The position numbers and the translations under genes are program-made. 64,000 nucleotides of DNA, taken from positions 8,432,001-8,496,000 of the forward strand of contig NC_090389.1 of the NCBI RefSeq assembly GCF_036365525.1. The letters are read 5' to 3'. The notes below the pieces were generated by a model. That model saw only the letters and a list, made by a program, of their open reading frames with translations, had not been told where the DNA came from and did no database searches. Below are positions 10,701 to 62,050 of the stretch, piece by piece; the first letter of the stretch is position 1; each line of letters opens with the position of its first letter. Origin of the DNA: Heterodontus francisci. Its lineage: Eukaryota.

Positions 10701-13548
10701 CTCGGCGTGAGCGTGTTGGGGTTTGCTCGGCGTGAGCGTGTTGGGGTTTGCTCGGCGTGAGCATGTTGGGGTTTGCTCGGCGTGAGCGTATTGGGGGTTT
10801 GCTCAGCGTGAGCGTGTTGGGGTTTGCTCAGCGTGAGCGTGTTGGGGTTTGCTCAGCGTGAGCGTGTTGGGGTTTGCTCAGCGTGAGCGTGTTGGGGTTT
10901 GCTCAGTGTGAGTGTATTGGGGTTTGCTCAGTGTGAGTGTGTTGGGGGTTGATCAGTGTGAGTGTGTTGGGGGTTTGATCAGTGTGAGTGTGTTGGGGTT
11001 TGCTCAGTGTGAGTGTATTGGGGTTTGCTCAGTGTGAGTGTATTGGGGTTTGCTCAGTGTGAGTGTATTGAGGTTTGCTCCTTGTGAGTGTGTTGGGGGT
11101 TTGCTTGGCGTGAGTGTGTTGGGGTTTGCTCAGTGTGAGTGTGTTGGGGGTTTGATCAGTGTGAGTGTATTGGGGTTTGCTCAGTGTGAGTGTGTTGGGG
11201 GTTTGATCAGTGTGAGCGTGTTGGGGTTTGCTCCGTGTGAGTGTGTTGGGGTTTGCTCAGTGTGAGCATGTTGGGAGTTTGCTCAGTGTGAGCGTATTGG
11301 GGGTTTGCTCAGTGTGAGTGTGTTGGGGTTTGCTCAGTGTGAGAGTGTTGGGGTTTGCTCAGTGTGAGTGTGTTGGGGTTTGCTCAGCGTGAGCGTGTTG
11401 GGGTTTGCTCAGCGTGAGCGTGTTGGGGTTTGCTCAGCGTGAGCGTGTTGGGGGTTTGCTCAGTGTGAGTGTATTGGGGTTTGCTCCGTGTGAGTGTATT
11501 GGGGTTTGCTCAGTGTGAGTGTGTTGGGGGTTGATCAGTGTGAGTGTGTTGGGGGTTTGCTCAGTGTGAGTGCGTTGGGGGTTTGCTCAGTGTGAGCGTG
11601 TTGGGGTTTGCTCAGCGTGAGCGTGTTGGGGGTTTGCTCAGTGTGAGTGTATTGGGGTTTGCTCAGTGTGAGTGTGTTGGGGGTTGATCAGTGTGAGTGT
11701 GTTGGGGGTTTGCTCAGTGTGAGTGCGTTGGGGGTTTGCTCAGTGTGAGTGTGTTGGGGTTTGCTCAGTGTGAGTGCGTTGGGGGTTTGCTCAGTGTGAG
11801 TGTGTTGGGGTTTGCTCAGTGTGAGTGTATTGGGGTTTGCTCAGTGTGAGTGTATTGGGGTTTGCTCAGTGTGAGTGTATTGAGGTTTGCTCCTTGTGAG
11901 TGTGTTGGGGGTTTGCTTGGCGTGAGTGTGTTGGGGTTTGCTCAGTGTGAGTGTGTTGGGGGTTTGCTCAGTGTGAGTGTATTGGGGTTTGCTCAGTGTG
12001 AGTGTATTGGGGTTTGCTCAGTGTGAGTGTATTGAGGTTTGCTCCTTGTGAGTGTGTTGGGGGTTTGCTTGGCGTGAGTGTGTTGGGGTTTGCTCAGTGT
12101 GAGTGTGTTGGGGGTTTGATCAGTGTGAGTGTATTGGGGTTTGCTCAGTGTGAGTGTGTTGGGGGTTTGATCAGTGTGAGCGTGTTGGGGTTTGCTCCGT
12201 GTGAGTGTGTTGGGGTTTGCTCAGTGTGAGCGTGTTGGGGTTTGCTCAGTGTGAGTGTGTTGGGGTTTGCTCAGTGTGAGTGTGTTGGGGTTTGCTCAGT
12301 GTGAGTGTATTGGGGTTTGCTCAGTGTGAGTGTATTGGGGTTTGCTCAGTGTGAGCGTGTTGCGGTTTGCTCAGTGTGAGTGTGTTGGGGTTTGCTCAGT
12401 GTGAGTGTATTGGGGTTTGCTCAGTGTGAGTGTATTGGGGTTTGCTCAGTGTGAGCGTGTTGCGGTTTGCTCAGTGTGAGTGTGTTGGGGTTTGCTCAGT
12501 GTGAGTGTATTGGGGTTTGCTCAGTGTGTGTGTATTGGGGTTTGCTCAGTGTGAGCGTGTTGGGGTTTGCTCAGTGTGAGTGTGTTGGGGTTTGCTCAGT
12601 GTGAGCATGTTGGGGTTTGCTCAGTGTGAGTGTATTGGGGGTTTGCTCAGTGTGAGTGTGTTGGGGTTTGCTCAGTGTGAGCGTGTTGGGGTTTGCTCAG
12701 TGTGAGTGTATTGAGGTTTGCTCCTTGTGAGTGTGTTGGGGGTTTGCTTGGCGTGAGTGTGTTGGGGTTTGCTCAGTGTGAGTGTGTTGGGGGTTTGATC
12801 AGTGTGAGTGTATTGGGGTTTGCTCAGTGTGAGTGTGTTGGGGGTTTGATCAGTGTGAGCGTGTTGGGGTTTGCTCCGTGTGAGTGTGTTGGGGTTTGCT
12901 CAGTGTGAGCATGTTGGGAGTTTGCTCAGTGTGAGCGTATTGGGGGTTTGCTCAGTGTGAGCGTGTTGGGGTTTGCTCAGTGTGAGTGTGTTGGGGTTTG
13001 CTCAGTGTGAGCGTGTTGGGGTTTGCTCCGTGTGAGTGTGTTGGGGTTTGCTCAGTGTGAGTGTGTTGGGGTTTGCTCAGTGTGAGCGTGTTGGGGTTTG
13101 CTCAGTGTGAGTGTATTGGGGTTTGCTCAGTGTGAGCGTGTTGGGGTTTGCTCAGTGTGAGTGTGTTGGGGTTTGCTCAGTGTGAGCATGTTGGGGTTTG
13201 CTCAGTGTGAGTGTATTGGGGGTTTGCTCAGTGTGAGTGTGTTGGGGTTTGCTCAGTGTGAGCGTGTTGGGGTTTGCTCAGTGTGAGTGTATTGGGGTTT
13301 GCTCAGTGTGAGCGTGTTGGGGTTTGCTCAGTGTGAGTGTGTTGGGATTTGCTCAGTGTGAGCATGTTGGGGTTTGCTCAGTGTGAGTGTATTGGGGGTT
13401 TGCTCAGTGTGAGTGTGTTGGCGTTTGCTCAGTGTGAGCGTGTTGGGGTTTGCTCAGTGTGAGTGTGTTGGGGTTTGCTCAGTGTGAGTGTATTGGGGGT
13501 TTGCTCAGTGTGAGCATGTTGGGGTTTGCTTAGTGTGAGTGTATTGGG

Positions 13549-14869
13549 CATTTGCTCTCTCTCCATTGTGGGTAAGAACCTGGTCATCAGGTGCGAGGCG
13601 CTCACGTTGTTGCTCTACGTGGCGCAGGTCTGGCCCATACCCCACTCCTGCGCCGTGGCAGTCACCCGAGCCATTTTCCGCTTCGTCTGGGGATCTAAAA
13701 TGGACCGGGTCCGGAGGGACACGATGTTCAAATCTCTGGACATGGGCGGGAAAAATGTACCCAACGTGGCCCTCATCCTGATGACCACCTTCGTGTGCGG
13801 CTGCATCAAGCTATGTGTAGATCCCCAGTACGCAAACTCCAAGTGTCACTACGTGCTGAGGGTCTATCTGTCCCCGGTGTTGCGAAGGATGGGCCTGGTC
13901 ACATTGCCGCGGAACGCACCATGCAGTTGGGCGGCGCCGTACCACCTATCCTTCGTGGAGCAGTTTCTGCGGAAAAACACCTTTGACCACCGGTCCATCA
14001 GGCAGTGGTCTGCACGGAATGTCCTCAAGGCCCTACGGGAAAAGGAAACGGTGGATCCTGTCGGATGGTTCCCCGAGCAGACCGTCAAAGTCATTTGGCG
14101 GAATGCCTCATCACCAGAACTTTCAAACAAGCACCAAGACGTAGCTTGGCTGGTGGTGAGAAGGGCCCTCCCCGTCAGATCCTTCATGCACACCCGAAGT
14201 CTCGCCCCCTCCGCACAGTGCCCCCGCGTTGGCTGTGGTGGGGAAGAGACGGTCGCCCACCTCCTCTTGGAATGTGCCTTTGCAAAGCAGGTGTGGAAAG
14301 AGATGCAGTGGTTTTTGTCAAGGTTCATCCCAAGCAGCTCTGTAACACAGGAGTCTGTGCTCTACGGGCTGTTCCCAGGGACGCACACCGAGACAAACAT
14401 CAACTGCTGCTGGAGGACTATCAATTCGGTGAAAGACGCCCTTTGGTCTGCCCGAAACTTGCTGGTCTTCCAGCGCAAAGAGTTGTCCACCACCGAATGT
14501 TGCAGACTGGCACATTCCAAGGTCCAGGACTACGTGCTGAGGGACGCACTAAAGCTTGGGGCAGCCGCAGCAAAGGCTCAATGGGGAAAGACCACAGTGT
14601 AAGGTTCCCCCACCAAGCTGGACTGAGGGGCTGGATCAATGGGAAACCCCTCGAACTGTATCGTTAATATTCTGAATTGCTGTAAATGTAAAACTGTAAT
14701 TGACATGACAATTGTGAAACGGAAGGGTTGGGAAGAAACTCATGACAGTATTGAAGGAAACTGATCTCCCTTGCAATGTTTGTATTTTTTGGTGCTGTTT
14801 GGAAACTGTTTGGCAATGTAATTTTTACAGATTTTTATGAATAAAGTATATTTTGGAAAAAAAAAAAAA
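13549..14869 (+). mobile_element. Tx1/L1-clade LINE, 5'-truncated, young
   Basis: Open frame to 14602 including the zf-RVT motif CPRVGCGGEETVAHLLLEC. The 3' UTR has AATAAA and a poly(A) tail at about 14857-14869. Confidence 0.9.
13550..14602 (+). CDS. C-terminal ~350 aa of Tx1-like ORF2 (post-RT region plus CCHC zinc finger); truncated, no true start
   Basis: Uninterrupted ORF-track entry 13526-14602. Its first codons come from the minisatellite. Confidence 0.7.
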   Translation: MCSLSIVGKNLVIRCEALTLLLYVAQVWPIPHSCAVAVTRAIFRFVWGSKMDRVRRDTMFKSLDMGGKNVPNVALILMTTFVCGCIKLCVDPQYANSKCHYVLRVYLSPVLRRMGLVTLPRNAPCSWAAPYHLSFVEQFLRKNTFDHRSIRQWSARNVLKALREKETVDPVGWFPEQTVKVIWRNASSPELSNKHQDVAWLVVRRALPVRSFMHTRSLAPSAQCPRVGCGGEETVAHLLLECAFAKQVWKEMQWFLSRFIPSSSVTQESVLYGLFPGTHTETNINCCWRTINSVKDALWSARNLLVFQRKELSTTECCRLAHSKVQDYVLRDALKLGAAAAKAQWGKTTV

Positions 14870-17620: not shown

Positions 17621-17942
17621 TGTTGATCACCAACAGATCCACGATATAACCACCAAAGACATGAACCATATAATCACCAACACATCATCATAATAATCAT
17701 GAACGCATCTACTATCTAATCACCAATGGATCACTATATATTCACAAACACATAATCGAGTAATCATCCAAAACGTCACCATATAATCTCCAACACAGCT
17801 CCATATCATCACCAACTCATCACTATATCATAGAACATATAGAACATAGAACATAGAACATACAGCACAGAACAGGCCCTTCGGCCCACAATGTTGTGCC
17901 GATCCTTTGTCCTCTGTCAAGGACAATTTAATCTATACCCCA

Positions 17943-20858
17943 TCATTCTCCTTTATCCATATACCTATCCAAAAGCCTTTTGAAAGTCCCTAAAGTTTCT
18001 GACTCAACAACTTCCCCGGGCAAGGCATTCCATGCCTCGACCACTCTCTGGGTAAAGAACCTTCCCCTGACATCCCCCTTATATCTCCCACCCTTCACCT
18101 TAAATTTATGACCCCTTGTAACGCTTTGCTCCACCCGGGGAAAAAGTTTCTGACTGTCTACCCTATCTATTCCCCTGATCATCTTATAAACCTCTATCAT
18201 GTCACCCCTCATCCTTCTCCTTTCTAATGAGAAGAGGCCTAGAATGTTCAGCCTTTCCTCGTAAGACTTATTCTCCATTCCAGGCAACATCCTGGTAAAT
18301 CTCCTCTGCACCCTCTCCAAGGCTTCCACATCCTTCCTAAAATGAGGCGACCAGAACTGCACACAGTACTCCAAATGAGGCCTTACCAAGGTCCTGTACA
18401 GCTGCATCATCACCTCACGGCTCTTAAATTCAATCCCTCTGCTAATGAACGCTAACACCCCATATGCCTTCTTCACAGCCCTATCCACTTGAGTTGCAAC
18501 TTTCAATGATCTATGCACATAGACCCCAAGGTCTCTCTGCTCCTCCACATGCCCAAGAACCCTACCGTTAACCCAGTATTTTGCATTCATGTTTGTCCTT
18601 CCAAAATGGACGACCTCACACTTTTCAGGGTTAAACTCCATCTGCCACTTTTCAGCCCAGCACTGCAACCTATCCAAGTCCCTTTGCAGACGACAATAGC
18701 CCTCCTCGGTATCCACAACTCCACCAACCTTTGTATCATCTGCAAATTTACTGACCCACCCTTCGACGTCCTCATCCAAGTCGTTAATAAAAATCACAAA
18801 GAGGAGAGGACCCAGAACTGATCCCTGCGGCACGCCACTGGTAACTGGGCTCCAGGCTGAGTACTTACCATCTAAGACCACTCTCTGCCTTCTATCAGTT
18901 AGCCAATTCTTAATCCAACTGGCCACATTCCCCACTATCCCATGCCTCCTGACTTTCTCCATAAGTCTACCATGGGGGACCTTATCAAATGCCTTACTAA
19001 AATCCATGTACACCACATCCACTGGTTTACCCTCATCCACTTGCTTGGTCACCTGCTCAAAGAATTCAATCAGGCTTGTGAGGCAAGACCTACCCCTCAC
19101 AAAACCGTGCTGACTGTCCCGAATCAAGCAGTGTCTTTCCAGATGCTCAGAAATCCTATCCCTCAGCACCTTTTCCATCAACTTGCCTACCACCGAAGTA
19201 AGACTAACTGGCCTGTAATTCCCAGGGTTGTTCCTATTCCCTTTCTTGAACAGGGGCACAACATTTGCCACCCTCCAATCACCTGGTACCACCCCCGTCA
19301 GCAGAGAAGATGAAAAGATCATTGCCAGCGGCTCTGCAATTTCATCCCTTGCTTCCCATAACATCCTTGGATATACCCCGTCAGGCCCGGGAGACTTGTC
19401 TATCTTCAAGTTATTCAAAAACCCCAACACATCTTCCCTCCTAACGAGCACTTCCTCGAGCTTACCAGTCTGCTTCCCACCGTCCTCTTCAGTAATACAC
19501 CCCTTCTCATTCGTAAATACCGAAGAGAAGTACTCATTCAAAACCTCACTTATCTCTTCCGGCTCAACACACAGTCTCCCGCTATTGTCCTTGACCGGAC
19601 CTACGGTCCCCCTAGTCATCCTCATATTTCTGACATACGCGTAAAAGGCCTTGGGGTTTTCTTTTATCCTACCCGCCAAGCATTTTTCATGCCCTCTCTT
19701 AGCTCTCCTAATCCCTTTCTTCAGATCCTTCCTGGCCATCTTGTATCCCTCCAGAGCTATGCCTGTGCCCTTTTTCCTCAACTTTATATACGCATCCTTC
19801 TTCTTCCTAACAAGACTCTCAACCTCTCTTGTCAACCACGGTTCCCTCACATGACCATCCCTTCCCTGTCTGACAGGGACATGCTTATCAATGGCCCCTA
19901 CTATCTGCTCCTTGAAAAAGTTCCACATTTCGACCGTGCCCTTCCCTGCCAGCATATGCTCCCAACTTATGCTCCTCAGTTCCTGCCTGACAGCATCATA
20001 TCTACCCTTCCCCCAATTGTAAACCTTGCCCTGTTGCACATACCTATCCCTCTCCATTACCACAGTGAATGCTACAGAATTGTGATCACTATCTCCAAAG
20101 TGCTCGCCCACCAACAGCTCTATCACTTGCCCTGGTTCATTACCTAGTACCAAATCCAATATTGCCTCCCCTCTGGTCGGGCAGTCTACATACTGAGTCA
20201 GAAAAGCTTCCTGGACATACTGCACAAACACTACCCCATCCAAACTATTCGATCTAAAGAGTTGCCAATCAATATTTGGGAAGTTGAAATCCCCCATAAT
20301 TACTACCCTGTGACTTCTGCTCCTTTCCAAAATCTGTTTCCCAATCTGCTCTTCCACCTCCCTGCTGCTATTGGGGGGCCTATAGAAAACTCCCATCAAG
20401 GTGACTGCTCCTTTCCTGTTCCTGACCTCAACCCACAGTGCCTCAGTCGGCAGATCCTCCTCGAAAATTCTTTCAGCAGTTGTTACACTATTTCTAACTA
20501 ACAATGCCACCCCCCCACCTCTTTTACCACCATTCCTAATCTTATGAAAACATCTATAACCAGGTAGCTCCAAAAACCATTCCTCCCCCTCACCTATCCA
20601 CGTTTCAGTGATGGCCACAACATCGTAGTCCCAAGTGCCCATCCACGCCTTCAATTCACTCACCTTATTCCTGATGCTTCTTGCGTTGAAGTATACGCAC
20701 TTTAACCCTTCTCCGTGCCCATCTGTCCTCTGCGACAGTGCTACCTTCCCGAATACCTCACTACACTCTTTGTCTTTCTGAGTGGACCCACTGGTCCCTG
20801 GATTACAAGTCCGGTTCCCATCCCCCTCCCAAACTAGTTTAAACCCTCCCGAACAGTA
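17943..20858 (-). CDS. CR1 ORF2: APE endonuclease plus reverse transcriptase, uninterrupted (stop-to-stop frame of 971 codons)
   Basis: The ORF track gives 906 aa from 20663. The frame stays open upstream through LKCVYFNARSIRNK to a TAG at 20859-20861. Motifs: [37 protein letters not shown]. Confidence 0.92.
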   Translation of the reverse strand, partial: YCSGGFKLVWEGDGNRTCNPGTSGSTQKDKECSEVFGKVALSQRTDGHGEGLKCVYFNARSIRNKVSELKAWMGTWDYDVVAITETWIGEGEEWFLELPGYRCFHKIRNGGKRGGGVALLVRNSVTTAERIFEEDLPTEALWVEVRNRKGAVTLMGVFYRPPNSSREVEEQIGKQILERSRSHRVVIMGDFNFPNIDWQLFRSNSLDGVVFVQYVQEAFLTQYVDCPTRGEAILDLVLGNEPGQVIELLVGEHFGDSDHNSVAFTVVMERDRYVQQGKVYNWGKGRYDAVRQELRSISWEHMLAGKGTVEMWNFFKEQIVGAIDKHVPVRQGRDGHVREPWLTREVESLVRKKKDAYIKLRKKGTGIALEGYKMARKDLKKGIRRAKRGHEKCLAGRIKENPKAFYAYVRNMRMTRGTVGPVKDNSGRLCVEPEEISEVLNEYFSSVFTNEKGCITEEDGGKQTGKLEEVLVRREDVLGFLNNLKIDKSPGPDGVYPRMLWEARDEIAEPLAMIFSSSLLTGVVPGDWRVANVVPLFKKGNRNNPGNYRPVSLTSVVGKLMEKVLRDRISEHLERHCLIRDSQHGFVRGRSCLTSLIEFFEQVTKQVDEGKPVDVVYMDFSKAFDKVPHGRLMEKVRRHGIVGNVASWIKNWLTDRRQRVVLDGKYSAWSPVTSGVPQGSVLGPLLFVIFINDLDEDVEGWVSKFADDTKVGGVVDTEEGYCRLQRDLDRLQCWAEKWQMEFNPEKCEVVHFGRTNMNAKYWVNGRVLGHVEEQRDLGVYVHRSLKVATQVDRAVKKAYGVLAFISRGIEFKSREVMMQLYRTLVRPHLEYCVQFWSPHFRKDVEALERVQRRFTRMLPGMENKSYEERLNILGLFSLERRRMRGDMIEVYKMIRGIDRVDSQKLFPRVEQSVTRGHKFKVKGGRYKGDVRGRFFTQRVVEAWNALPGEVVESETLGTFKRLLDRYMDKGE

Positions 20859-20993
20859 CTAGCAAACCTCCCTCCCAGGATATTGGTGCCCCTCTGGTTC
20901 AGATGCAGCCCGTCCTGTTTGAACAGGTCCCATCTTCCCCAGAATGCAGTCCAATTATCCAAGAACTGGAAGCCCTCCCTCCTACACCATTCC
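20834..20993 (-). pseudogene. C-terminus of CR1 ORF1 (SGNH hydrolase-like)
   Basis: WCRREGFQFLDNW...DGLHLNQRGTNILGGRF...EGLN*. Confidence 0.85.
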
Positions 20994-23900
20994 ATCATCA
21001 CCAACATAGCACTGTATAATCTCCAACATAGCACTGTATAATCATCAACACATGCACCATATAATCACCAACAGATACACCATATAGTCACCAACAGATC
21101 TTCATGTAGACACCAACATCATCATGTAATCACAAAGACATTATCGCATAATCGGCAACACATCACCATGTTATCACCCACACATCACCATATCATCACC
21201 AACATATAACAATATCACTAACACAACAACCATATATTGACCAACACATCCGCCATTTAACCACTAACATACCTTCCAAAATAATTACCAAAGCATCACC
21301 AAATAATAAGCAACATGCCCACCATATAATCACCAAGACATCACCATATATTCACCAACACATCACCACATATTCACCAACACATCACCATATATTCACC
21401 AACACATCATATTTTACTAATACAACTGCCATAAAATCACCAAAACATCACAACACAATCACCTACACATCATCATAACATGACTAACATATCACCATAT
21501 AATCACCAACACTGGACCATATATTCACAAACACAGCACCATATCATCACCAATATATCACCATATCATTACCAATATATCACCATATCATTACCAATGT
21601 ATAACCAAATCACCAACACACCAACCATATAATCACCAACACACCCACCATATAATGACCAACAAATCACCAAATAATTACCAACACATCACCATACAAC
21701 CCCAAAACATCATCACATAATCACCAAAACATCACCATATAATTAACAATACATCACCAAATAATCCCCAACATATCACCATATAATTACCAACTCACCC
21801 ACCATATCATCATCAACACATCACCATATAAGCAACATATTGCTGAATAATCACCAACAGATCACCATAATCACTAACACATCACCATATAATCACCAAC
21901 ACACCATCAAATAATCACCAACACATCGCACCATATAATCACCAACTGATCACTATATAATCACCAAAACAACACAGTATAATCACCAACACACCTACAC
22001 ATCATCCACACATCACCATTTCATTGCCAACCTTTCACCATATCATCACCTATACATCACGATATAATCATTAACAGATTACCAAATAAACAGTAACACA
22101 CCTAACATATAAGCACCAATATATCACCATATAATCAACAACAGATCACCATATTATCACCAACATATCACAATATCACCAAAACACCAAGATCACCAAC
22201 ACATCCACCATTTAACCATCAACATACCCGCCATATAATCACCAATAAAACCACCATAAAATCACCAAAACATCATCATAACAATCAAAAACACACCCAC
22301 CAACACATCAGCATAATCACCAACATATCACCATATCATGAAGACATCAGCAACACATGCAGAATACAATCAACATATTACCATATAATCATCAACAGAT
22401 CACCAAATAATTAGCAACACTCCCACCATATAATCACCAACACATCACTATTTCCTGACTAACACATAACATCTATTCATCTACACATACCATATAATCA
22501 TCAACGTACGCATCCATCTAATCACCATCTATTATCATATTATCACCAACAATCATTATATAATCACAAAAACATCACCATAAAATCTACTCTAGCAATT
22601 TTATGAACCTCAAGACCGCCAGCATATGCATTACCCTCTCGATAGATCACTGAAGCAGATCAGCAAAGAATAGTAGGCTGATCTTACTGGAGGTAAATGT
22701 TGATCTGAAGCTATATCAATAAATATAAGGGAATTTGTCTGTAATTTGAAAGATGCTATTCTAGTTGCATAAATTAGTGATGAGGCCTCATTTATAATAC
22801 TTGCAAGCAATACTGGACACCTAAACCACCCAGACCAAGATCTGTTTGATGTGAAAGCAGTGGAAGGAATGGGTTGCCTCATGTTTTTTCAAAAAATATT
22901 TGTTCTAGGGCTGTGGGCGATGATTTTTTTGTCCATTCCGAGGTGCCCTCAGGGCATTAAGAGTCAATTGTATTGAGGGGCTCAAATCGCATGTCAGCTC
23001 GACCTGGTAGGCGTGACAGATTCCGTTCTTTAAAGAACATGAGCTTTTCAGGAGAGATGCAGCACCAGGGATTTTAGCTCTCCCACACTGGATCTTTGCA
23101 GGGTTTCTTCAAAGAGGTAGAGAAAGAGGTGAGCTGGGTGGTTTCTTTTTCCTAGGCAGGCAAAACACCAACTGTCTTCAAAACAGTTCACACCCCAACT
23201 GACTTGAAAATGATATCCAAAACACCAAAACAGAAAGTCAACCTCCTGACCTCCAGAAATCTTGACATGTGGCTTCTCTGTAAACATCTTCCCCAGGTCA
23301 CCAAGGTCTCTTTTGTTTATTAAGTTTAAAGCACATGACTTCCAGCAAGGTTGCTTTTAAACAACATCTCAGTGTCCTTTCAGTGAACTGCCAACAACAA
23401 AGCAAAGTCCAGCTTCTATGAAATCTTTACCCTTCTAATGAATCCATCTCCACAATTTAAAAAAATACTTAACAAAAATTATAGAAGCATCTTCATAACA
23501 ATATCAAACGTGAAGCTTCATCTGAGACTAGCATGAGACCTCGTTTCACTAAAAGCACCATTTCATTGAGGCCCATGTGTCGGCCAGCCTAGGCACCAAA
23601 AATGGGCGGCAGTACAGTCAAATTTGGTAGGTGTTGGAGGGACAGATGACCTTCCCTTGCATATGTTAACTGATGTACTGTTTTTACTCCACTATTCCAT
23701 ACTTGCCAACTAGCTTCCCATCTATTTCTGTATTTACATCGTTCCCTAATCTTCAATATACCATAATGTCGTTACCTGACACTACATGGCATGGAACCCA
23801 AACAGGAATTCAGGGAAGACAAACAGGTGGAAGCTGAAGTTTGGTACCAGTACATTAGCAGCACATAGCTGCTGAGTTGTAGCATCAATGAAGATGCCTT

Positions 23901-25950: not shown

Positions 25951-27789
25951 TTATCTTTCTGATTCCAATAGTTTGCCCACTACTGAGGTTAGACTGACTG
26001 GCCTGTAATTATTCAGTCTATCCCTTGCTCCCTTTTTGAACAAAGGTACAACATTAGCAGACCTCCAATCCTCCAGCACTACACCTGTATCCAATGAGGA
26101 CTGGAAAATGATGGTCAGAGCATCCGCTATTTCCTCCTGACTTCTTTTAACAGCTTGAGGTACATTTCATCTGGCCCTGTGATTTATCCACTTTCAAGGA
26201 TGCTAATCCCATTAATACTTCCTCTCTCCCTATGTTTATCACATCCAATACTTAATACTACTCTTCCTTAACTACAATATCTGCACCATCCCCCTCTTTT
26301 GTGAAGACAGATGCAAAGTATTTATAAAGAACCATACCAGCACCTTCTGCCCCTACATATAGTTTACCTTTTTGGTCTTTTACAGGCCTGACTCCTTAGT
26401 TATCCTCTTACTCTTAATGCATTGATAAAACATCTTTGGGTTCACCTTGATTTTTCTTTCCAATATTCTTTCAAGGCCACTCTTACCTTTCCTAATTTCC
26501 TTTGTGATTTCACCCCTCCACTTTCTATGCTCCTCGGCTTTCTGTAGCATTGAGTTCTCAGTGTCAGACATAAGCTTTCCTCTGAAACAAAAACAAGAAA
26601 TGCTGGATTCACTCAGCAGGTCTGGCAGCATCTGTGGAAAGAGAAGCAGAGTTAACGTTTCGGGTCAGTGACCCTTCTTCGGAACTGACAAATATTAGAA
26701 AAGTCACAGATTATAAACAAGTGAGGTGGGGGTTGGGCAAGAGATAACAAAGGAGAAGGTGCAGATTGGACCAGGCCACATAGCTGACCAAAAGGTCACA
26801 GAGCAAAGGCAAACAATATGTTAATGGTGTTTTGAAAGACAAAGCATTAGTACAGATTAGGTGTGAATATACTGAATATAGAACATCAGCAAGTGCAAAC
26901 CTGAAGAAAAACAACCTGAAAAAAACAGTGGGTAAGCAAACTGAACAAACTAAGATGAAATGAAATAAATGCAAAAAATGTAAAAAGGAATGCAAAAAAA
27001 AAAGGAAGAAAAAATAACTAAAAATGAAAGTAAAGTGGGGGGCTGTCATGCTCTGAAATTATTGAACTCAATGTTCAGTCCGGCAGGCTGTAGTGTGCCT
27101 AATCGGTAGATGAGATGCTGTTCCTCGAGCTTGCGTTGATGTTCACTGGAACACTGCAGCAATCCCAGGACAGAGATGTGAGCATGAGAGCAGGGGGGAG
27201 TGTTGAAATGGCAAGCAACCGGAAGCTCAGGGTCCTGCTTGCGGACTGAGCGGAGATGTTCCGCAAAGCGGTCACCCAGTCTGCGCTTGGTCTCCCCAAT
27301 GTAGAGGAGACCACACTGTGAGCAGCGAATACAGTATACTACATTGAAAGAAGTACAAGTAAATCGCTGCTTCACCTGAAAGGAGTGTTTGGGGCCTGGG
27401 ATAGTGAGGAGAGAGGAGGTAAATGGGCAGGTATTACACCTCCTGCGATTGCAAGGGAAGGTGCCCTGGGACGGGGACGAGGTGGTGGGGGTAATGGAGG
27501 AGTGGACCAGGGTGTCGCGGACCCCTGTTTGTTCAGTTTGCTTACCCACTGTTTTTTTCAGGTATTAGTTTGTTCAGTTTGCTTACCCACTGTTTTTTTC
27601 AGGTATTAGTTTGTTCAGTTTGCTTACCCACTGTTTTTTTCAGGTAGCGACACCCTGGTCCACTCCTCCATTACCACCACCACCTCGTCCCCGTCCCAGG
27701 GCACCTTCCCTTGCAATCGCAGGAGGTGTAATACCTGCCCATTTACCTCCTCTCTCCTCACTATCCCAGGCCCCAAACACTCCTTTCAG

Positions 27790-28119
27790 GTGAAGCAGCG
27801 ATTTACTTGTACTTCTTTCAATGTAGTATACTGTATTCGCTGCTCACAGTGTGGTCTCCTCTACATTGGGGAGACCAAGCGCAGACTGGGTGACCGCTTT
27901 GCGGAACATCTCCGCTCAGTCCGCAAGCAGGACCCTGAGCTTCCGGTTGCTTGCCATTTCAACACTCCCCCCTGCTCTCATGCTCACATCTCTGTCCTGG
28001 GATTGCTGCAGTGTTCCAGTGAACATCAACGCAAGCTCGAGGAACAGCATCTCATCTACCGATTAGGCACACTACAGCCTGCCGGACTGAACATTGAGTT
28101 CAATAATTTCAGAGCATGA
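27790..28119 (+). CDS. Penelope GIY-YIG endonuclease C-terminal fragment (mirror copy at 27046-27375 on -)
   Basis: 109-aa ORF with VYCIRC...YIGET.RRL..RF.EH...E..LI..L.TL.P.GLN. 5'-truncated. Confidence 0.75.
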   Translation: MKQRFTCTSFNVVYCIRCSQCGLLYIGETKRRLGDRFAEHLRSVRKQDPELPVACHFNTPPCSHAHISVLGLLQCSSEHQRKLEEQHLIYRLGTLQPAGLNIEFNNFRA

Positions 28120-28516: not shown

Positions 28517-31380
28517 TGCTTCTCTTTCCACAGATGCTGCCAGACCTGCTGAGTGAATCCAGCATTTCTTGTTTTTGTTTCAGATTTCCAGCATCCGCAG
28601 TATTTTGCTTTTATATAAGCTTTCCTCTTCTGCCTTATCTTGGCCTGTAGGCTCCTTGACATCCATGGGGCTCTAGATTTGGCCGTCCCACCCTTTCTCT
28701 TTGTGGGAACATGTTTACTCTGAATCCCTTGAATGTTCCCTTTAAATGCCTCCCACTGCTCTGACACTGATTTACCTTTAGCTGTTCCAGTTCACTTTCG
28801 CTAAATCACTCCTCGGCTTAGTAAAATTGGCCTTGCCCCAATTGAGAACTCTGACTCCTGTTCTATCTTTGTCCTTTTCTATAATTATGTTAAGGCTGAG
28901 TGAATTATGATCACTACCACCAAAATGCTCTCCCACTGCCACTCCTTCCACCTGACTAGCTTCAGTTCCGAAAACTAAGTCCAAAACTGTGCCCTCTCTC
29001 TTGTTGGATTAGCTATATACTGGACAAAAAAGTTCTCCTGAATGCACCTCAAGAATTCTGTTTCCTCCACTCCATTCACACTAAAACAATCCCAGTTAAT
29101 ATTGGGGTAGTTAAAATCCCCTACTATTACTGCCTCATTGTTTTTACACTTCTCAGAGATTGCCTAAATATTTGCTCTTCTATCGCCCTCTGGTTGTTTG
29201 GGGGTCCGTAGTACACTCCCAGCAGTGTGACTGCCCCTTTTCTGTCCCTTAGCTCAATCCATATGTCCTCATTTGATGATCCTTATAGCATCTCATCCCT
29301 CCTCACAGCTGTAAATTGTTTCTTTGATCAAATTCCCACTCCCCTCCTTTTTTATCCCCCTCCCATCGCGTCTGAAAACCCTGTAACCAGGAATGTTGAG
29401 CTTCCATTCCTGTCCCTCCTTATGCCATGTTTCTATAATAGCTATGATATCATACTGCCACGTGTCTATCTGTGCCCTCAGCTCATCTGCTTTATTTGCT
29501 ATACTCCTTGCATTGAAGTACTTGAGTACTGCCAAACTCTATTTCTTATTTTCTAACCTTTGTTTCTTCTGCTTCCAAACTTAGCCACTAATTTTCTGAC
29601 TTCTGATTTCCTTTCTGATTTTGTCCCAACTGAATCTACCCTCAGGTCCCCATCCCCCTGCCAAACTAGTTTAAACCCTCCCCAGATGCACAAGCAAAAT
29701 GTCCTACAAAGAACTCAGTCCCGGCTCTGTTCAGGTGCAACCCTTCGGGCCTGTACAGGTCTCATCTCGCCCAGAGCCGGTCCCAATGTCCCAAGAATCT
29801 AAAGCCCTCCCTCCTGCACCAACTTTCCAGCCACGCATTCATCTATCTTTTCCTCCAATTCCTGTACTCACTTGCGCATGACACTGTGAGTAATTTGGAG
29901 ATTACTACTTTTGAGGTCCTGCTTGTTAATTTTCTACCTAGCTCCCTAAATTCTGACTACAGGAGCATATCCCTCTTTCTACCTATGTTGTTGGTTCCAA
30001 TGTGGACCACGACTGCTGGCTATTCACCCTTGCGCCCTCAGGATGCTCTGCAGCTGTTCAGTGACATCCTTGACCCCGGCACCAGGAAAGCAACACATCA
30101 TCCTGGATTCACGTTTGCAGAAATAGAAATGCCTACCTGCTCCCCTAACTATTGAATCACCTATCACTATGGTGCTTCCAGTCTTCCTTGTACCCACGCC
30201 CCCCCCCAACAACTAACTTAAAGACCACCATTAATTAAATAGTACTTTGTAAGTAGCTAATGTTCCAAATTACATTAGAACACTTGAAAACCTCACACCA
30301 CATTTCTACATTCCACAGCCCCTCCTGAAGCAAAAGCTTTGCAGAGTTGGAGAGTGAGACGCATTCAGGGGGCTCCTGACCTCCCTGCCTGTTCCTTTTT
30401 GACTGCCTGGTGGTCACCGATTCCTTCTCTCCCTGCATACTCTTGAGCTACGGGGTGACTCTATCTATAAACGTGTTATCCACGTAGCTCTCAGCCTCAC
30501 GGATGCATCGCAGTGACGCCAGCAGCTGCTCAAATTCTGAAACCCAGAGCTCGGGCTGCTGCAACTGACAACACTTCCTGCACATATGGTTATCCAGGAC
30601 CCGAGAAATGTCCTGGAATTCCCACATAGCACAGGATGTGCACTCCAGAGGTTGTAGCAGCCCTGCCATTCCTCTATCTATTAAATTATAAACCTTGCTA
30701 CCACTAATAAACATTGCTAATCCCTTTACATACAACTATTGTTCAACCACAATTCATGAAACAAGTGAAAGGGCAAGTTACCACTTGGAACACAATAATG
30801 GGCAAGATGTGGATGTGGTGCTAATCATTACATTTTATGTGGCATTACAGAAAAAAGTAAAGTTAACAACACAGCTGCTCAGATTCCTGCCATGACTGAT
30901 GAGATGTTTTTGGCTTATAACCTCTGGGATTTGAAGCTCAAGGGCCCTGCCAAAGACTGCTCCACCTGCACCTGTGTTTAGGCAGACTTGGCCATTGGGA
31001 GACGAGGCAGCATGCTGGGTTCTGGCTGAGCCGGGGCAATGGGTGAGAAATGGGAGCACTTTGACTGGAGCTCCCACTTCCACGGTCCCTTTCACCATCA
31101 TCCCTCTCCTGGGCCAGCGCCAGATCAGTCCTAACATTCTGCTGCAGACCAGCTTCATGGAAATCAGTGATGAATTGTAAAGCCATGGATAAGATATCTG
31201 TCATCTGCTTAAGATGGCAGATGTGGTGGTACCCAAAGTCTACACACCCTGCATAAACTCATTTGAGAGCAGTGATGGAAGCTCCATGGAGGCGGTCACT
31301 CTCTCCATGGTAGATGTTCGCTCAATTCCCAGTGTCATCAATACGATTGAGTCGAACTTCTGCATCATCTCTACTATTGC

Positions 31381-34554: not shown

Positions 34555-37040
34555 CAATGCAATTCTCATCTGCAAATTTAGAATTTTTTTAAATTCCAAA
34601 GTCCAAATCATTAATGTAACTTGTGAACAGCAGTGGTCCCAGCACTGATCCTCATGCAGCACCACAACCCACCTAATACCGCCACTCTGAATACCTACCA
34701 TTTACTCCCACTCTCTGCTTTCTGTCTAGAAGTCAGCGAGCAATCTGTTCTGCCACTTGTCCTCTCACTCTGCGTTCTCTGACCTTATTTATTAGTCCAT
34801 TATGGACCTTACTGAAGGCCTTTTCAAAATCCAGATAAATTATATCGACTGCATTACCATTGTCTATTCTCTCTGTTTCCTCCTCAAAAAATTCAATAAG
34901 GTTAGTCAAGCAAGATTTTCTCTTTTGAAATCCATGCTGACTATTCAATATTGTATTTTTCTTTTCTAGATATACTTCTAGTCTCTCCTTTAGTAAGGAT
35001 TCCATTATTTTTCTGACCACCGATGTCAAGCTGACTGGTCTATAATTCCCTATGTGTGTTCTGTCCCACTTCTTAAATCTCGGAATTAGGTTAGCTATCC
35101 ACCAGTCCTCTGGCACTAAACCTTTTCTAATGAAATATTAAATATGTGTAGTAATGTCTCTGCTATCTCTTCCATAGATTCTTTTAAAACGTGTGGGAGC
35201 AATCCATCCGGACCAGGGGCTTTATCCTATTTGAGTTTGATCATTCAATACATCACCTTCTTTTATTTTAAAAGCATTTATCTCATTACTCATCTCATCA
35301 TTCAATGTCATGTCTATCTGTTCTTTCTCCCTAGTAATTATTATTTAAAATGTCTGCCATCTCTCTATTGTTACGTGTGGTATTACCCTGATATCCAAAA
35401 ATGGTCCTATTTCCACCCCAGCCTTTCTTTTTTATATTGATGTGCCTGTTTTATGTTCCTGGATAATTTAATTACACCTTCTTCTTTGCCCTCCAAATCA
35501 CTTCATAACTCTCTTATCATGCCCTGCTCTGCTGTCTATGTGCTTAATGTATGCCTCTTTCCTAACCCTCAGTTGTTCCCTTATTTTTATTTAGAGATAC
35601 AGCACTGAAACAGGCCCTTCGGCCCACCGAGTCTGTGCCGACCAACAGCTCCCCATTTACACTAACCCTGCAGTAATCCCATATTCCCTACCACCTACCT
35701 ACCTATACTAGGGGCAATTTACAATGGTCAATTTACCTATCAACCTGCAAGTCTCTGGCTGTAGGAGGAAACCGGAGCACCCGGCGAAAACCCACGCGGT
35801 CACAGGGAGAACTTGCAAACTCCGCACAGGCAGTACCCAGAATTAAACCCGGGTCTCTGGAGCTGTGAGGCTGCGGTGCTAACCACTGCGCCACTGTGCC
35901 ATCTCACTAGTGCTTAGTTGTTCTTTCCTTTCTGTGGAATACACTTTCCCTGCACTCTGTTGAATACCATTTTAAATGTTTCCCATTGTTGTTCCAGCTG
36001 TTAGCCAATATTGTTGCCCATTTTATTCCCAAGTTCTATTCTTAACCCCTCAAAATCAGCTTTTCTCCAATCTGTTAACCCTTTTTATGTCCTTCTCTAT
36101 GATCATCTTAATGTGTATTATATTATGGCCACTACTTCCTACATGTTCCCTTACTTTTACTTCTCTTGTTTACTCTGGTTCATTTCCTATTTTACTAGAT
36201 CTAATAGTGAATCTTTCCTTATTGGGCTTTTTACATGTTGGGTTAGAATGGAGTCCTGTACACATTGTAGGAACTCCATTCCCTTTACCTACCTCTTCTG
36301 TCCCATTAAGATCAGGGTAATTGAAATCCCCCATTGATCATTATTCCATATTTTTTATTCAATTCCCTAATTTGTCTGCATATTTCTTCTTCCACCTCCC
36401 TTCCACTAGGTGGTCTGTAGACAACACCTATTAGTGTGATTGATCCTTTATTATCTTTTATCCTTATCAATATTAATGCCATTTTTATCTCGCTGATAGC
36501 TGCATCCCTTTTTTCTACTACCATTATGTTCTCTCTAATAAGTACAGCTACTCCATCTCCCTTTTTCCCCTCTCTTTTCTAAATATATAATATCCTGCAA
36601 TATTTAATTCCTCGTCCAGATTTTTCTGTAGCCATGTCTCAGTAATCCATACTTTGTCTGGTTCCTCCCAATATATAATTGCCTCCAGCTCCCCTGTTCT
36701 ATTATGGACACTGTGTGCATTGCTGTGCTGACATTTTAACACTTTTTTTTTAATAGGATTTCCTCTCACTTTATGTTTAACAACCTTTTCAGACTCCTGT
36801 TCTATAACTGTATTTATTCCCTTGCTATGTCTTACTTTATTCTTTCCTATGTTGTCCTTCCCTGTTTTGTTTACATTTAGGCTGCTTACGTTTCTTGTAG
36901 ATCCCTCCCCCCATCTGACTAATTTAAAGCCTTTGCCAGCTCCCTATTTAATCTTTCCGCTGGGACATGGGTCACATCCTAGTTCAGGTGGAGCCCATCC
37001 CATCGGTATAACTCCTATTGTGGCACGTCTGTCAGTACCT
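34555..37040 (-). mobile_element. Older CR1 LINE (EN-RT), decayed
   Basis: ITETW, GVVYRPP, PEDW.IAN...NYRPVSLTS, YLDFEKAF. Confidence 0.85.
35581..35900 (-). mobile_element. HE1-type V-SINE, near full length
   Basis: tRNA head ggcacagtggcgcagtggttagc, V domain gcggagtttgcaagttctccctgtgaccgcgtgggttttcgccgggtgctccggtttcctcc, and CR1-like tail gggccgaagggcctgtttcagtgctgtat. Confidence 0.9.
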
Positions 37041-50236: not shown

Positions 50237-51775
50237 TGGTTCCATATCCAGGGAGAACTGGAAATTGTGGCCAGAGCCTCCGCAATTTCCGCCCTTACTT
50301 CCCTCAGTAACCTAGGATGCATCCATCTGGACCAGGTGACTTTTCTATTTTGAGTACAGCTAGCCTTTTAAGTAACTCCTCTTCATCTATTTCTAACCTA
50401 TCCAATGACGCTACTGCCTTCTCCTTTCCTGCTGCATTGACAGCATCCTCTTCGATAGTGAAGACAGATGCAAAGTACTTATTCCATACCTCTGTCATGC
50501 CATGCCTCTGCTTCCATGACAGGATCTCCTTTTTGGCTCCTAATCAGCCTCACCCTTCCACAACCCTTTTACTATTATATTTAAGGATTTAAAGAAATAG
50601 ACTTTTGGGTTCTCTTTTATCTTAGTTGCTAATCTATTCTTGTACTTGTCGCTTTGCCCTTCTTATTTCCTGTTTTAGATCTCCTCTGTACTTTCTATAT
50701 TCAGCTTGGTTCTCTACTTTATGAAGAACATTATAATTGCCTTAAGCCTCCTTTATCTGTCTCATTTTATCCTCTGTATCTTTAGTCATCCAGGGATCCC
50801 TGGCTTTCGATGTGCTTCCTTTCCCCTTCCTAGGAATGTATCTACTCTGTATTTGAATCGTCTCCTCTTTGAAGGCCTCGCATTGTTCAATTACTGTTTT
50901 AACTACTAATTTTTGATTCTAATCCACCTGGACCAGATTCGTGTTCAACTCACTGATGTTAGCACTCCTCCAGTTAAGTAATTTTACACTTGGTTGTACC
51001 TTGCCCTTGTCCATAACTATTCTGAACCTAATGATATGATCACTGCTTCCCAAATGTTTTCGTTCTTGCCCCACTTCATTCTCTGGAACTAGATCCAGTG
51101 CTGCTCCCTTCCTCATTGGACTGGAAACATACTGATCAAGAAAGTTGTCTTGTACACATTTCAGGAATTCCTCCCCACTTTGCCCTTATAATACTACCAC
51201 ACCTCGTCTCTTTTACTTCCTTCCCTATCTTTTCTCCGCTTCTTTGAGCCAGATCACCATTACTGCCACTATATAATAATTCCCTATGGTGACTTCAGCC
51301 TGCACCTCACTAACCTTATTTACCACGCTCTATGCAATTACACACGTGCACTCCAAACACATCTTAGACTGCCTTGCATATGTCCCTTGCCTGATCCTTC
51401 CTATTTCTGAATTATTCTTTACTCGAGTGCTGTTTGTCTCTCCCAATCCTCTGTATAGCCTGTTTGTCATCTATAACATTTCATCCTGGTGTCCAGCCAC
51501 TGCCAAATTAGTTTAATTCCTCCCCCACAGCAGTACTTAATCTTCCCGCGAGGACTTTGGTCCCAACTCTGTTGAGGTGCAACCTTTGAACATGTCTCAA
51601 TATCCCAGGAATCTGAAGCCCTCCCTCCTGCACCATTTCTCCACCTATTTATTCGACTATTCCTATAACAACAACAACATTGTGTTGTCATTATTGTACG
51701 ATTCCTATACTCACTAGCACTTGCCACAGGGAGTAATCCAGAGATCACTACCTTTGAAGTCCTGTTTCTTAACAG
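50237..51775 (-). mobile_element. CR1 (ORF1 end, EN, linker) with deletions
   Basis: KVVISGLLPV, LDLV..NE.GQ, SDH, KSPGPDG.HPRLL. Confidence 0.8.
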
Positions 51776-55632: not shown

Positions 55633-58380
55633 AGACCTGCCAGGAGAACAGAGGAAGACAGTTGATATCTCTCTTTGAAGAATTCCTGCATCAAGTTGTA
55701 CTATTGCCTCTTGTATTTGAAGAAATCCTGTATGTTTGCAGAAAACCTTGCATCTTTGAAGGAACTTTCCATTGAATGTGTGGGAACTGAAGTCTTTGTT
55801 GTTGCACACCTGATGTAAGACCTATGTGAAACCTTCTGTAGCTGCATCTCTTGAAAGCCAGACTGTTCACCAACATTGCCTGGAAAGAACTGTTCCAGGC
55901 AGATTCCTAGTGGTAGCCAGCTATTCACCTTTGGGACACCTTGCCAAAACATAGGACTTCCACGTCGTTTCAGTCTAATTTTTTTTATTCCTTCTATTTC
56001 TTAATAACAGCTGTAAACAAAAATCCCTTTTTTCCCGGTTAAACGTTTGTGTATGAGAATGTTTGTATGAGGGCTAGGATAAAAATAAGGGGTTTTAATA
56101 TTTCAATTCATGTGTATGTTTACTTTATTATTGGTTAAGACTTGGTTTATAATAAACGGATAGTTTTGTTGTTTATTCAAAAAACTTGATTGGTGTGCTT
56201 TATTCTGGGGGGAAAATAAGAGTATCTGATTGACGGTTTTAGTAAGTAGGAAAATTTAAATATATATTGTGATCTGTGGAGAAGTGGGACTGAGTTAACA
56301 GTGCACTCCTCCTGCCTTAGTCGTAACACTATTTACATGCCGGTGCAAGATTTTTGGGTTCCCTTTTATGTTAACTGCCATTCTATTCTCATATTCTCTC
56401 TTTGCCAGTCTTACTTTCCTCTTCAACTGCCATCTCAACTTACTGTATTTGGCCTGGTTCTCACTTGAAGAATTCACCTGACATGCAGCATACGCCCTCT
56501 TTTTTTGTTTCTTCATAATCTCTATCTCCCTTGTCATCCATGAAGCCCTGCTTTTGGTTCCTTTACCTTTTGCCCTTGTTGGAATGTACCTAGCCTGTAC
56601 CTGAAACATTGCTTTAAAATAACCCACTGTTCTGATACAGCTCTTCCTGTCAGTGTTTGGTTCGATTTTACCCTGGCTAGATCCCTTCTCTTCGCGTTGA
56701 AATTAGCCCTCTTCCAATCTGGATGTTCTACCTTATTTCGTTCCATGCTTTTCTGCATTACTGGTCTAAACTTTATGGTATGATGATCACTCTTACCCAT
56801 GTGCTGTCGACAGGCACTTGGTCCACTTGGCCCACCTCATTTCCCAGCACCAGATCCAGCAATGCCTCCTTTCTAGTTGGGCCGAGAACATACTAGTCAA
56901 GGAAGTTCCCCTCTACACATTTCAGAAATTCCTCCCCCTCTCTACACTTTACTCTAGAATTATCCCAATCGATATTTAGGTAATTAAAGTCCCCAAAATC
57001 ACCACTCTATAGTTCTTGCTCATCTCGTGATTTTCCTGCAGTTTTGCTTCTCTATCTCTCTCACTATTTGGAGGCTTATAGAATAACCCTAGTAGCATGA
57101 TCATATCCTTTTTGTTTCTCATTTCTAACCAAATGGATTCTGTTCTTGTCTCCTCAAGGACATCCCCTCTTTCCAACAATACACTATCTTCCCTAATCAG
57201 TACTGCCACCTCACCTCCCTTTTTTCCTTCTCTATCTTTTCTGAACACTTTATATCCTTGAATATTAAGCACCCGGTCCTCACCATTTTTAAGCCATGTT
57301 TCTGTTATTGCTACATCATAGTCCCATACTGCTATTCGTGCTTGAGGCTCACCAACCTTATTCACCACAATTTGTGCATTCACATACATGCATTGTAATC
57401 CTGTCTTTGCATTCCTCGTAGTCCTTCTCAGTCCGTTCCCATCTATTACGGAACTACTCCTTCTCTAGTACTGTATAACACTCCCACATTATGCACCCTA
57501 TTCCTTGTTTCTACTTCTATATGCTGGTGCCTACCCCCTGCCAATTTAGTTTAGCCCTCCCAACCACATAGTGAATCTCGCCGCAAGGATATTAGTCCCA
57601 GTCCTGTTAAGGTGAAACCCATCCCTTTTGTATTAGTTCCTTCTGCCCCAGAACTGGTTCCAATGCCCAACAATCTGAAGCCCTCCCTCCCGCTCCACAC
57701 CTCCAGCCACACATTGATCCTCCCTATTGTCCTATTTCTACTCTTGCTAGCCTGTGGCACTGGAAGTAATCCAGAGATTACTACCTTCAAGGTCCTACTC
57801 TTCAACTTCCTTCCTAGCTCCTGAAAATCTGACCTTGCTATGTCATTGGTATCACAACTTCTGGCTCACTCCCTTCCCCCTGCAGAATATCCTGCACTGT
57901 CTCCGTGATATCCTTTACCCTGACACTAGGGAGGCAACTCACCATGTGGGACTCAAGATAATGGTTATAGAAATGCCTAACTGTGCCCCTGAGTAAGGGA
58001 TCACCTATAACAACTACATTTTTGCCCTTTACTGCTCCCTCCTGTATAGACCCATGGCCACTGGCACGATGGACTGGACTGCACTCCTTCAAGGTGTCGT
58101 CACTCCCAGCCATCTCCAAAGCTGAATACCTGTTCAGGAGCGGCGCACAACCTGAAGACTTCTAAACTTCCTGCCTCTTTGTTCTCTTCCTCATGGCCAC
58201 CCACCTACAATCCTGAGCTGCTACTACTGTGTCAGTGGGTATGTGCACTGCCCACTAGTACTGAACTCTGCAGAACATGAAGTTGCGATTGCCAGGTTTG
58301 ACTCCCAACTGAGATCGCTAGATTTTGTTGGGCATGGTATCAAGGAATATGGAGCCGAGGCAGATAAATGAAGTTCAGGT

Positions 58381-61300: not shown

Positions 61301-62050
61301 GAAATTGCCCTCAGGTTCCCATCCCCCTGCCAATCTAGTTTAAACCATCCCCAATAGCACTAGCAAACCTTCCTGCAAGGATATTCTTCCTGGTCCTGTA
61401 CATCTGACTTGTACAGGCCCAACCTTCCCCTGAAGCAGTCCCAGTGTCCCAGAAATCTGAAGCCCGCCCTCCTGCACCATCTCTCCAGACACCCATTTTC
61501 TATACTTTCTATACTCACCAGCACATGGCCTTGGGAGTAATTGGAGATTATTATCTTTGAGGTCCTGCTTGCTAATCTCTTTCCTAACTCCCTAAACTCA
61601 GCCTGAAGGACCTCATCCTTTTTTCTACCTATATTGTGGATCACGACCTCTGGCTGTGTACCCTCACCCTCCAGAATGCTCTGTAACCGCTCGGTGATAT
61701 CCATGATCCTTGCACCAGGGAGGCAACATACCATTCTGGAATCACATCAGTGATCACACAAACGGCTGTCTGTTTCCTAAATATAGAATCCCCTACCACT
61801 ATTGCTCTCCTGTCTTTTCTCCTCCCTCCCTGCACAGCTCAGTCACCCATGGTGCTCTGGTTATGACTCTCACTGCACTCTCCAGAGGAACCCTCTCTCC
61901 CGTTGGTACTCAGAACTGAATACCGGTTAGAAAGTGGAATGCCTTCCAGGGACTCCTGCGCTACATGCCTTGTCTCTCTTGTCTGTCTGGCAGACACCCA
62001 GTCCCTCTCTACCTACGCTCTCTGAAGCTGCGGGGTGACCACCTCCTGAA
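58381..62050 (-). mobile_element. Near full-length decayed CR1 (ORF1 part to 3' tail)
   Basis: IVVGDS, CCLPGA, ITETW, a 245-aa RT ORF (59383-60120), LVRPQLEYC, and a (catagaaa)n tail. Confidence 0.9.

Follow-up and report, generated by a model that had tools for sequence, protein, structure and literature searches.

The junction between the two open reading frames (ORFs) of a CR1 retrotransposon is probably a programmed −1 ribosomal frameshift site that would give an ORF1-ORF2 fusion protein. One copy of this element, a young CR1, lies on the minus strand, from about 20999 to 17829, of a 64,000-nucleotide (nt) stretch of the Heterodontus francisci genome (contig NC_090389.1, positions 8,432,001 to 8,496,000), which is referred to here as the window. 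Frameshifting is the likely route into ORF2 because a slippery heptamer ends ORF1, ORF2 continues one base back, and there is often no start codon ahead of the ORF2 enzyme. The junction has a defined anatomy, is constrained at the nucleotide level, stands in −1 phase with an open linker, and lacks a conserved AUG; taken together, these features suggest that ribosomes shift frame here.

Anatomy of the CR1 junction

Read on the minus strand, as are all features in this section, ORF1 of the window copy terminates GAG GGT TTA AAC TAG. This end contains a U_UUA_AAC (TTTAAAC) heptamer at 20837–20843, recognized from sequence and conservation, that is in X_XXY_YYZ phase relative to ORF1 and is followed immediately 3' by the ORF1 stop TAG (20834–20836). 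ORF2 (17943–20858; 971 codons from stop to stop) is in the −1 frame, opens five codons upstream of the ORF1 end, and overlaps ORF1 by 25 nt. Its domain order is APE endonuclease (PF03372, ORF residues 56–259, 20082–20693) followed by reverse transcriptase (RT; PF00078, ORF residues 540–770, 18549–19241), both as Pfam matches; L1 endonuclease structures were also matched. The linker between the shift site and the endonuclease (20703–20833) is open in the ORF2 frame and contains no ATG. The first in-frame ATG of ORF2, codon 73 at 20640–20642, is within the APE domain, which starts 17 codons ahead of it. An exonuclease III alignment begins at the K of LKCVYFN, so AUG initiation at codon 73 would delete the first APE strand and the YFN motif. 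These positions confirm those that a first-pass annotation of the window had given for the heptamer, stop, ORF2 extent, −1 frame, and first ATG.

ORF1 of the window copy is a 3' remnant (20834–20999) that holds the end of an SGNH/GDSL esterase domain and is 5'-truncated against a simple repeat. With about 55 ORF1 codons left by truncation near 20999, this copy cannot itself use the site, and the question concerns its family. Copies with a whole ORF1 are 99.3–99.5% identical to the window copy; PF13472 (SGNH/GDSL esterase) is found in the whole ORF1 of one of them (locus L032), and the same junction is present in all 29 other fetched loci of the family. The element ends with a short 3' untranslated region (UTR) and a (TATGTTC)n tail (17829–17942). 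It shares an SGNH esterase ORF1, an APE-RT ORF2, and a short tandem-repeat tail with the esterase-ORF1 CR1 clade, and its 5' truncation and short tandem-repeat 3' tail are both CR1 traits. From this anatomy, compared with that known for vertebrate CR1 elements, we take it to belong to CR1. Among named ORF1 proteins, those of sharks and rays are the nearest to the CR1 ORF1 proteins of this 6.0-Gb genome. The copy is embedded in a degenerate (GGTGAT)n-like simple-repeat array (window 21000–22200 and below 17829), and no clear target-site duplication was found at it.

Constraint on the heptamer beyond protein coding

Junctions were collected with a profile of the ORF1 end from which the last five codons were omitted; the search covered the window, 1.2 Mb of genome stretches, family loci, and 38 metagenome loci and gave 141 matches. 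Exclusion of 9 out-of-register or edge matches, 2 self matches, and 11 from a family chosen by a heptamer-containing pattern left 119 junctions, which form 30 clusters at 85% identity. The first U of the heptamer is kept in 29 of the 30 clusters. Its Leu codon is TTA in 26/26 clusters, compared with TTA in 0/28 at the Leu of the G-L-H-L motif, and its Asn codon is AAC in 24/25. A tree was built from 27 in-register clusters, which include shark and bird-like lineages, after 7 more of the 119 junctions were excluded; the filter used holds both T of TTA and the first stop base constant, and in that set these three positions therefore provide no test. The codon that carries the first U has undergone nine residue changes and no third-base changes on this tree, compared with a median of 7 third-base changes (range 3–14) at 25 upstream codons. 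The stop that follows the heptamer is TAG or TAA in other lineages and is TGA in none of the 27 clusters.

Genome-wide exact counts give the same picture. The reference junction occurs 5,736 times, and a variant that differs synonymously 5 nt past the heptamer occurs 4,431 times, compared with 58 occurrences of a synonymous first-U change, 31 of TTG, and 4 of CTA; non-synonymous transitions number 79 over three sites. Synonymous variants that break the heptamer are thus no commoner than about what damage after insertion would leave. Synonymous disruption of the heptamer in young copies had been named in the first-pass annotation as a result that would speak against frameshifting; no amplified lineage with such a break was found among the clusters or in the genome-wide counts. 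In a held-out set of ten loci picked with a 35%-identical protein, nine have the heptamer and stop, and the tenth has a mutated stop and reads G-L-N-Y. The heptamer is constrained at the nucleotide level beyond protein coding: both its synonymous sites and the −1 phase are conserved beyond what the ORF1 G-L-N end would require, which is the comparison that had been proposed for this junction.

Coding requirements can be considered in both frames, because a required L-N in ORF1 together with a required F-K-L in ORF2 would dictate the same seven bases. A stop ahead of the heptamer closes the −1 frame; its distance upstream is 5 codons in most shark lineages, 1 codon in 15/15 copies of another family, and 2 codons in 6/10 bird-like loci, and there is mostly no start codon between this stop and the heptamer. 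Initiation therefore cannot reach the F of ORF2, and neither frame gives the first U a coding function; the simplest function for it would be P-site re-pairing of tRNA-Leu on UUU. An explanation without any signal, in which the heptamer is a by-product of a required ORF1 C-terminal Leu-Asn and of shared ancestry, draws on the invariance of L and N in the ORF1 alignment and on the relatedness of the lineages. It fails on the uniform TTA codon (26/26), on zero wobble changes against nine residue changes at the first-U codon, and on the GGG bias downstream described below, and it leaves ORF2 with no entry point. Pure coding constraint is already largely refuted and is the least credible account of the junction.

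Linker and entry into ORF2

The APE domain is in −1 phase at 21 of 33 unselected junctions (p = 3.5e-4). Across those 21 linkers (1,010 codons), the ORF2 frame contains 3 stops compared with 95 and 117 in the other two frames, where 21 of the 95 are the ORF1 stop itself. Open linkers have 16 different lengths, from 99 to 222 nt. A fusion protein would need a linker of this kind, variable, charged, and open. An ATG ahead of APE is absent in 29/29 copies of the window-copy family, in 2/2 copies of a sister family, and in 9/14 unselected open linkers; elsewhere, the first ATG is scattered between codons 3 and 47. ORF2 codons 3 and 4 have 12 and 9 different forms, respectively, among 21 representatives, most of which are not start-like. 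Near-cognate initiation or a spliced ORF2 RNA had been raised as ways in which the frameshift proposal could fall; the junction showed no conserved AUG, near-cognate start, or splice acceptor in up to 21 representatives.

A separate ORF2 RNA could be spliced from a donor in the 5' UTR or be transcribed from an internal TATA-like (TTTAAA) promoter with a G-box. Donor-like AG/GTAAG sequences do occur in CR1 5' UTRs, and the CTAG at the junction resembles a 3' splice site. Lineages with a TAA stop lack that AG, and in the 21 representatives the strongest YAG candidate around the junction varies in position and comes with no more than 9 pyrimidines in 15 nt. In families without an AUG, translation of such an RNA would begin inside APE. 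None of four joints in public contigs has GT..AG ends, which is a weak observation that concerns contigs only. A separate RNA thus appears very improbable as the source of ORF2 protein.

Natural single-ORF fusions were sought among proteins, which yielded six longer proteins. Two of these, P0205 and P0038, were rejected as natural fusions: their frames are joined in a G run ahead of F-K-L, and they look like single-copy indels. No indel or other letter was found at the heptamer in public Logan contigs; these are for the most part only presumed to be RNA and can show neither absence nor expression. In public contigs of three further organisms, differences flank the heptamer on both sides and none falls inside it, which is a weak indication.

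Distribution across lineages

Scored ORF1 proteins comprise 121 database proteins that end 24–28 residues past a D-G-x-H motif. An L-N end is present in 94 of these, from sharks, rays, coelacanth, frogs, turtles, lizards, and birds; a further five have near variants and one is distant. Directly ahead of L-N, 3/94 proteins have E, Q, K, M, or W, whose codons cannot end in U, compared with 39/94 and 29/94 one and two places earlier. Thirteen in-register metagenome loci, examined as DNA, group apart from the shark loci and resemble named bird ORF1 ends; the exact heptamer is present in nine of them. Among 130 additional 50%-cluster representatives, 66 were scorable, of which 36 end in L-N, and none of the 36 has E, Q, K, M, or W before it. 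The other ends are Q-G-N (7), S-G-N (1), S-K-N (1), S-S-N (1), and otherwise (20). Related loci were sought in viral contigs and prokaryote genomes, and none was found.

Distant ORF1 proteins that end in G-N or K-N (P0267, P0271, P0276, P0302, P0305, P0306, P0332, P0339, and P0296) provide a lead: these ends match what G_GGA_AAC and A_AAA_AAC would encode. U_UUA_AAC is counted among the heptamers most prone to shifting on mammalian ribosomes, and G_GGA_AAC and A_AAA_AAC are the others given as most shift-prone (PMC5009743).

Teleost esterase ORF1 relatives (P0087–P0114) mostly end in Thr (A-E-T, A-Q-T). In this sister group, an ACA TGA end would share bases with an ATG of the −1 frame and so point to reinitiation. 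Two vertebrate CR1 ORF1 proteins, P0001 and P0148, are filed under Pseudomonas aeruginosa and Klebsiella pneumoniae on short contigs and are likely host contamination of bacterial assemblies.

Evidence against frameshifting and the downstream region

Several observations weigh against the frameshift reading. Among the 121 ORF1 relatives, 21 are teleost-type and lack the L-N end, and two protein clusters, P0145 and P0152, end in R-E-L-N, which is incompatible with U_UUA_AAC. The Asn at codon −21 is likewise AAC in 16/17 clusters, so AAC alone is weak evidence. The 27-cluster tree is poorly resolved, with 4 of 24 branches well supported, and the clusters share ancestry. In the genome-wide counts, the 4,431 control occurrences come mostly from one amplified lineage, and subtraction gives about 161 AAT variants, in which the slippery pattern is retained. 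A SART1-type TAATG stop-start overlap occurs in 11/13 open copies of one shark family, and an ATG lies 2 nt past the stop in 3/5 open bird-like linkers; the heptamer is intact in both groups. Four GGG runs occur in only 3/25 representatives downstream of the site. No shared or unusually stable fold past the site was found in 25 representatives (z from −1.14 to +1.37) with ViennaRNA, which has pseudoknots outside its model. The same folding did not reveal a stem-loop or pseudoknot 5–9 nt downstream of the heptamer. This missing downstream structure is the main reason for restrained confidence in frameshifting. The TAATG overlap marks a young CR1 family (loci L187–L201) in which TTTAAAC is followed by TAATG, the case best suited to telling frameshifting from reinitiation.

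What is conserved downstream is a G-rich box at +10 to +19 past the heptamer. In the window copy, the core of this candidate stimulator (GGGGGATGGG; 20817–20826, minus strand) starts 10 nt past the heptamer and has conserved wobble positions. The two Gly codons of the box are GGG in 19/20 and 16/18 cases, compared with 44/155 in APE, and the codon ahead of the box Gly ends in G in 21/21 representatives. A G-run cluster that had been described after a 6-nt spacer is present at 20830–20817. A four-tract G-quadruplex is not conserved, and only the G-rich box is kept. A quadruplex is part of the optimal fold in 7/25 representatives, and a two-tier quadruplex at the box is also possible.

A GGACC-AGTG-GGTCC hairpin had likewise been put forward as a stimulator. 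Its sequence is present at 20784–20797 (minus strand), and its role was rejected: it is 39 nt downstream of the heptamer, family-specific, and unconserved, with z = −0.31, and is probably outside the signal. Pairing of the G-rich box with a C-rich 5' UTR tract was also rejected, as the 14-bp helix in L032 (−29.3 kcal, compared with about −18 in shuffles) is not repeated in the other 26 representatives. An Rfam scan of L032 gave sub-threshold matches only, none of which is at the junction.

Termination-reinitiation provides another way into ORF2: ribosomes would stop at the ORF1 end and restart nearby at an AUG or non-AUG codon, with the heptamer and G-rich box as coupling signals. The TAATG overlap and the bird-like ATG copies favor it, and it accounts equally well for an open linker and a stop that adjoins the entry point. 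Translation of L1 ORF2 is AUG-independent, and a TURBS-like UGGGA motif upstream of the stop is a signal of calicivirus-type termination-reinitiation. Such a TGGGA occurs in just 11/27 clusters here. Reinitiation is the described mechanism for L1 and SART1 (PMC2881922, PMC3708506). It leaves an in-phase X_XXY_YYZ heptamer, an invariant first U, and a constant −1 frame unexplained, and the AUG-bearing lineages retain the heptamer unchanged. A stop-adjoining AUG is absent in the window-copy family (29/29) and most others, and most of the 12 and 9 forms of ORF2 codons 3 and 4 among 21 representatives do not resemble starts. Reinitiation is the main rival of frameshifting at the CR1 junction, though an unlikely one.

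Proposed mechanism

In the proposed frameshift, tRNA-Leu and tRNA-Asn on UUA AAC would re-pair on UUU AAA, and reading would resume at CUA GUU UGG. Most ribosomes would terminate and release ORF1p (305 amino acids). A minority would produce a fusion of about 1,270 amino acids that contains, in order, a zinc finger, esterase, flexible linker, APE, and RT. The ratio of ORF1p to ORF2p would then be set by shifting, as in gag-pol. The pause would probably come from the G-rich box 10 nt downstream, through a bound protein or a weak two-tier quadruplex, which is the least supported step, and the stop codon perhaps aids it. The gag-pol-like reading first proposed for this junction gains from the heptamer, phase, and linker, and its hairpin or quadruplex stimulator is weaker than had been suggested.

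A broader version of this proposal can be put forward tentatively, as somewhat less likely than not. Frameshifting of −1 type may be the ancestral mode of RT expression in esterase-type CR1 elements, from sharks to birds, with distant and probably invertebrate lineages swapping U_UUA_AAC, G_GGA_AAC, and A_AAA_AAC. Its product could be an unprocessed esterase-APE-RT fusion, and its stimulator a linear G-rich box instead of a pseudoknot.

Comparison with known systems

A stop directly after the heptamer is also found in Rous sarcoma virus and equine arteritis virus. The CR1 junction has the same in-phase heptamer at the end of an upstream structural ORF as retroviral gag-pol and coronavirus ORF1a/1b, where infectious bronchitis virus uses U_UUA_AAC, and all of these have a polymerase ORF that lacks a start of its own and lies in the −1 frame (PMC5009743). 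It differs from the viral sites in that CR1 is an element without long terminal repeats (non-LTR) and has no conserved pseudoknot or stem-loop 5–9 nt downstream. No protease domain is present among the Pfam matches of either CR1 ORF, so the fusion would not self-cleave. At the nsp2 site of PRRSV, a short conserved linear motif, CCCANCUCC, to which nsp1beta and PCBP bind, takes the place of a structure about 10–11 nt past the heptamer. The CR1 motif differs in being G-rich; its spacing is similar, and the comparison is an analogy only.

Among non-LTR elements, TRE5-A and TRE3-A of Dictyostelium need a −1 frameshift to translate ORF2, according to a review (PMC5911963). They are also APE-type elements, but belong to a different clade and host from CR1. 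L1 and SART1 share with CR1 a bicistronic RNA of a long interspersed nuclear element (LINE), in which their ORF2 depends on ORF1 translation (PMC2881922). They make a separate ORF2p, and SART1 has a UAAUG overlap with downstream structure (PMC3708506), whereas the CR1 junction carries a slippery heptamer and lacks a conserved AUG.

Frameshifting at CR1 would be a known mechanism in a setting where the junction signal seems undescribed. A full-text literature search found no frameshifting proposal for vertebrate CR1, while original CR1 descriptions may hold an earlier mention, and the word CR1 is absent from the first 300,000 of the 449,034 characters of the Atkins 2016 review. According to the same review, natural use of G-quadruplex frameshift stimulators was anticipated but not known. 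The mode of LINE ORF2 translation has been answered only for L1, SART1, and 2A-bearing elements. CR1 accounts for 11.8% of the chicken genome (PMC11835228), and more than 100,000 candidate CR1 ORF1 ends were present at first look in the Heterodontus genome. If CR1 does frameshift, its polymerase would be a gag-pol-like fusion with the esterase domain attached, ORF2 models begun at the first AUG would be wrong, and the most abundant LINE of many vertebrates would have a translation control in common with retroviruses. The 30-nt junction could also become a test case for frameshifting without an RNA pseudoknot, and a G-rich-box stimulator would be of a kind not yet shown in a cellular element.

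Other junctions and features

The junction signature that had been noted in other CR1 copies of the window is borne out, with exact matches at two, a variant at one, and decayed forms at two, all on the minus strand. Two older copies have the exact heptamer and stop (29666–29675 and 61335–61344). A distant CR1 lineage has TTTAAAT and a stop (TTTAAATTAG; 36919–36928), with an A-L-N end and a linker that is open in the −1 frame. The decayed junctions are at 51503–51518 and 57541–57555. By count alone, the 10-mer is no commoner in the window than chance would give (7 matches allowing up to one mismatch, compared with 4.8 ± 2.2 in shuffles); its non-random part is that four of the seven are located at CR1 ORF1 ends.

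A 5' UTR motif of about 45 nt is common to divergent CR1 families (L032 at about 570–630, L172 at about 1255–1300, L187 at about 1315–1360, and L231). A 24-nt palindrome with an E-box-like CACGTG at its centre comes first in it, then a C-rich tract, and then the donor-like AG/GTAAG. Its 3' part is present in 15/29, 12/15, and 12/15 loci of three families and in 0/38 metagenome loci, and the motif is probably an internal promoter element. On contig C1 of genome G000, CR1 junction matches between 71669 and 183170 follow one another at intervals of about 18.7 kb, which suggests that a CR1 copy is part of a large tandem repeat.

Elsewhere in the window, 27046–28119 on the minus strand contains two near-identical tandem ORF fragments, which are presumably Penelope-like; the one that was scanned has a weak GIY-YIG match. 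On the plus strand, 13514–14602 is the 3' part of another LINE ORF2, which we take to be Tx1/L1-like, with a zf-RVT domain.

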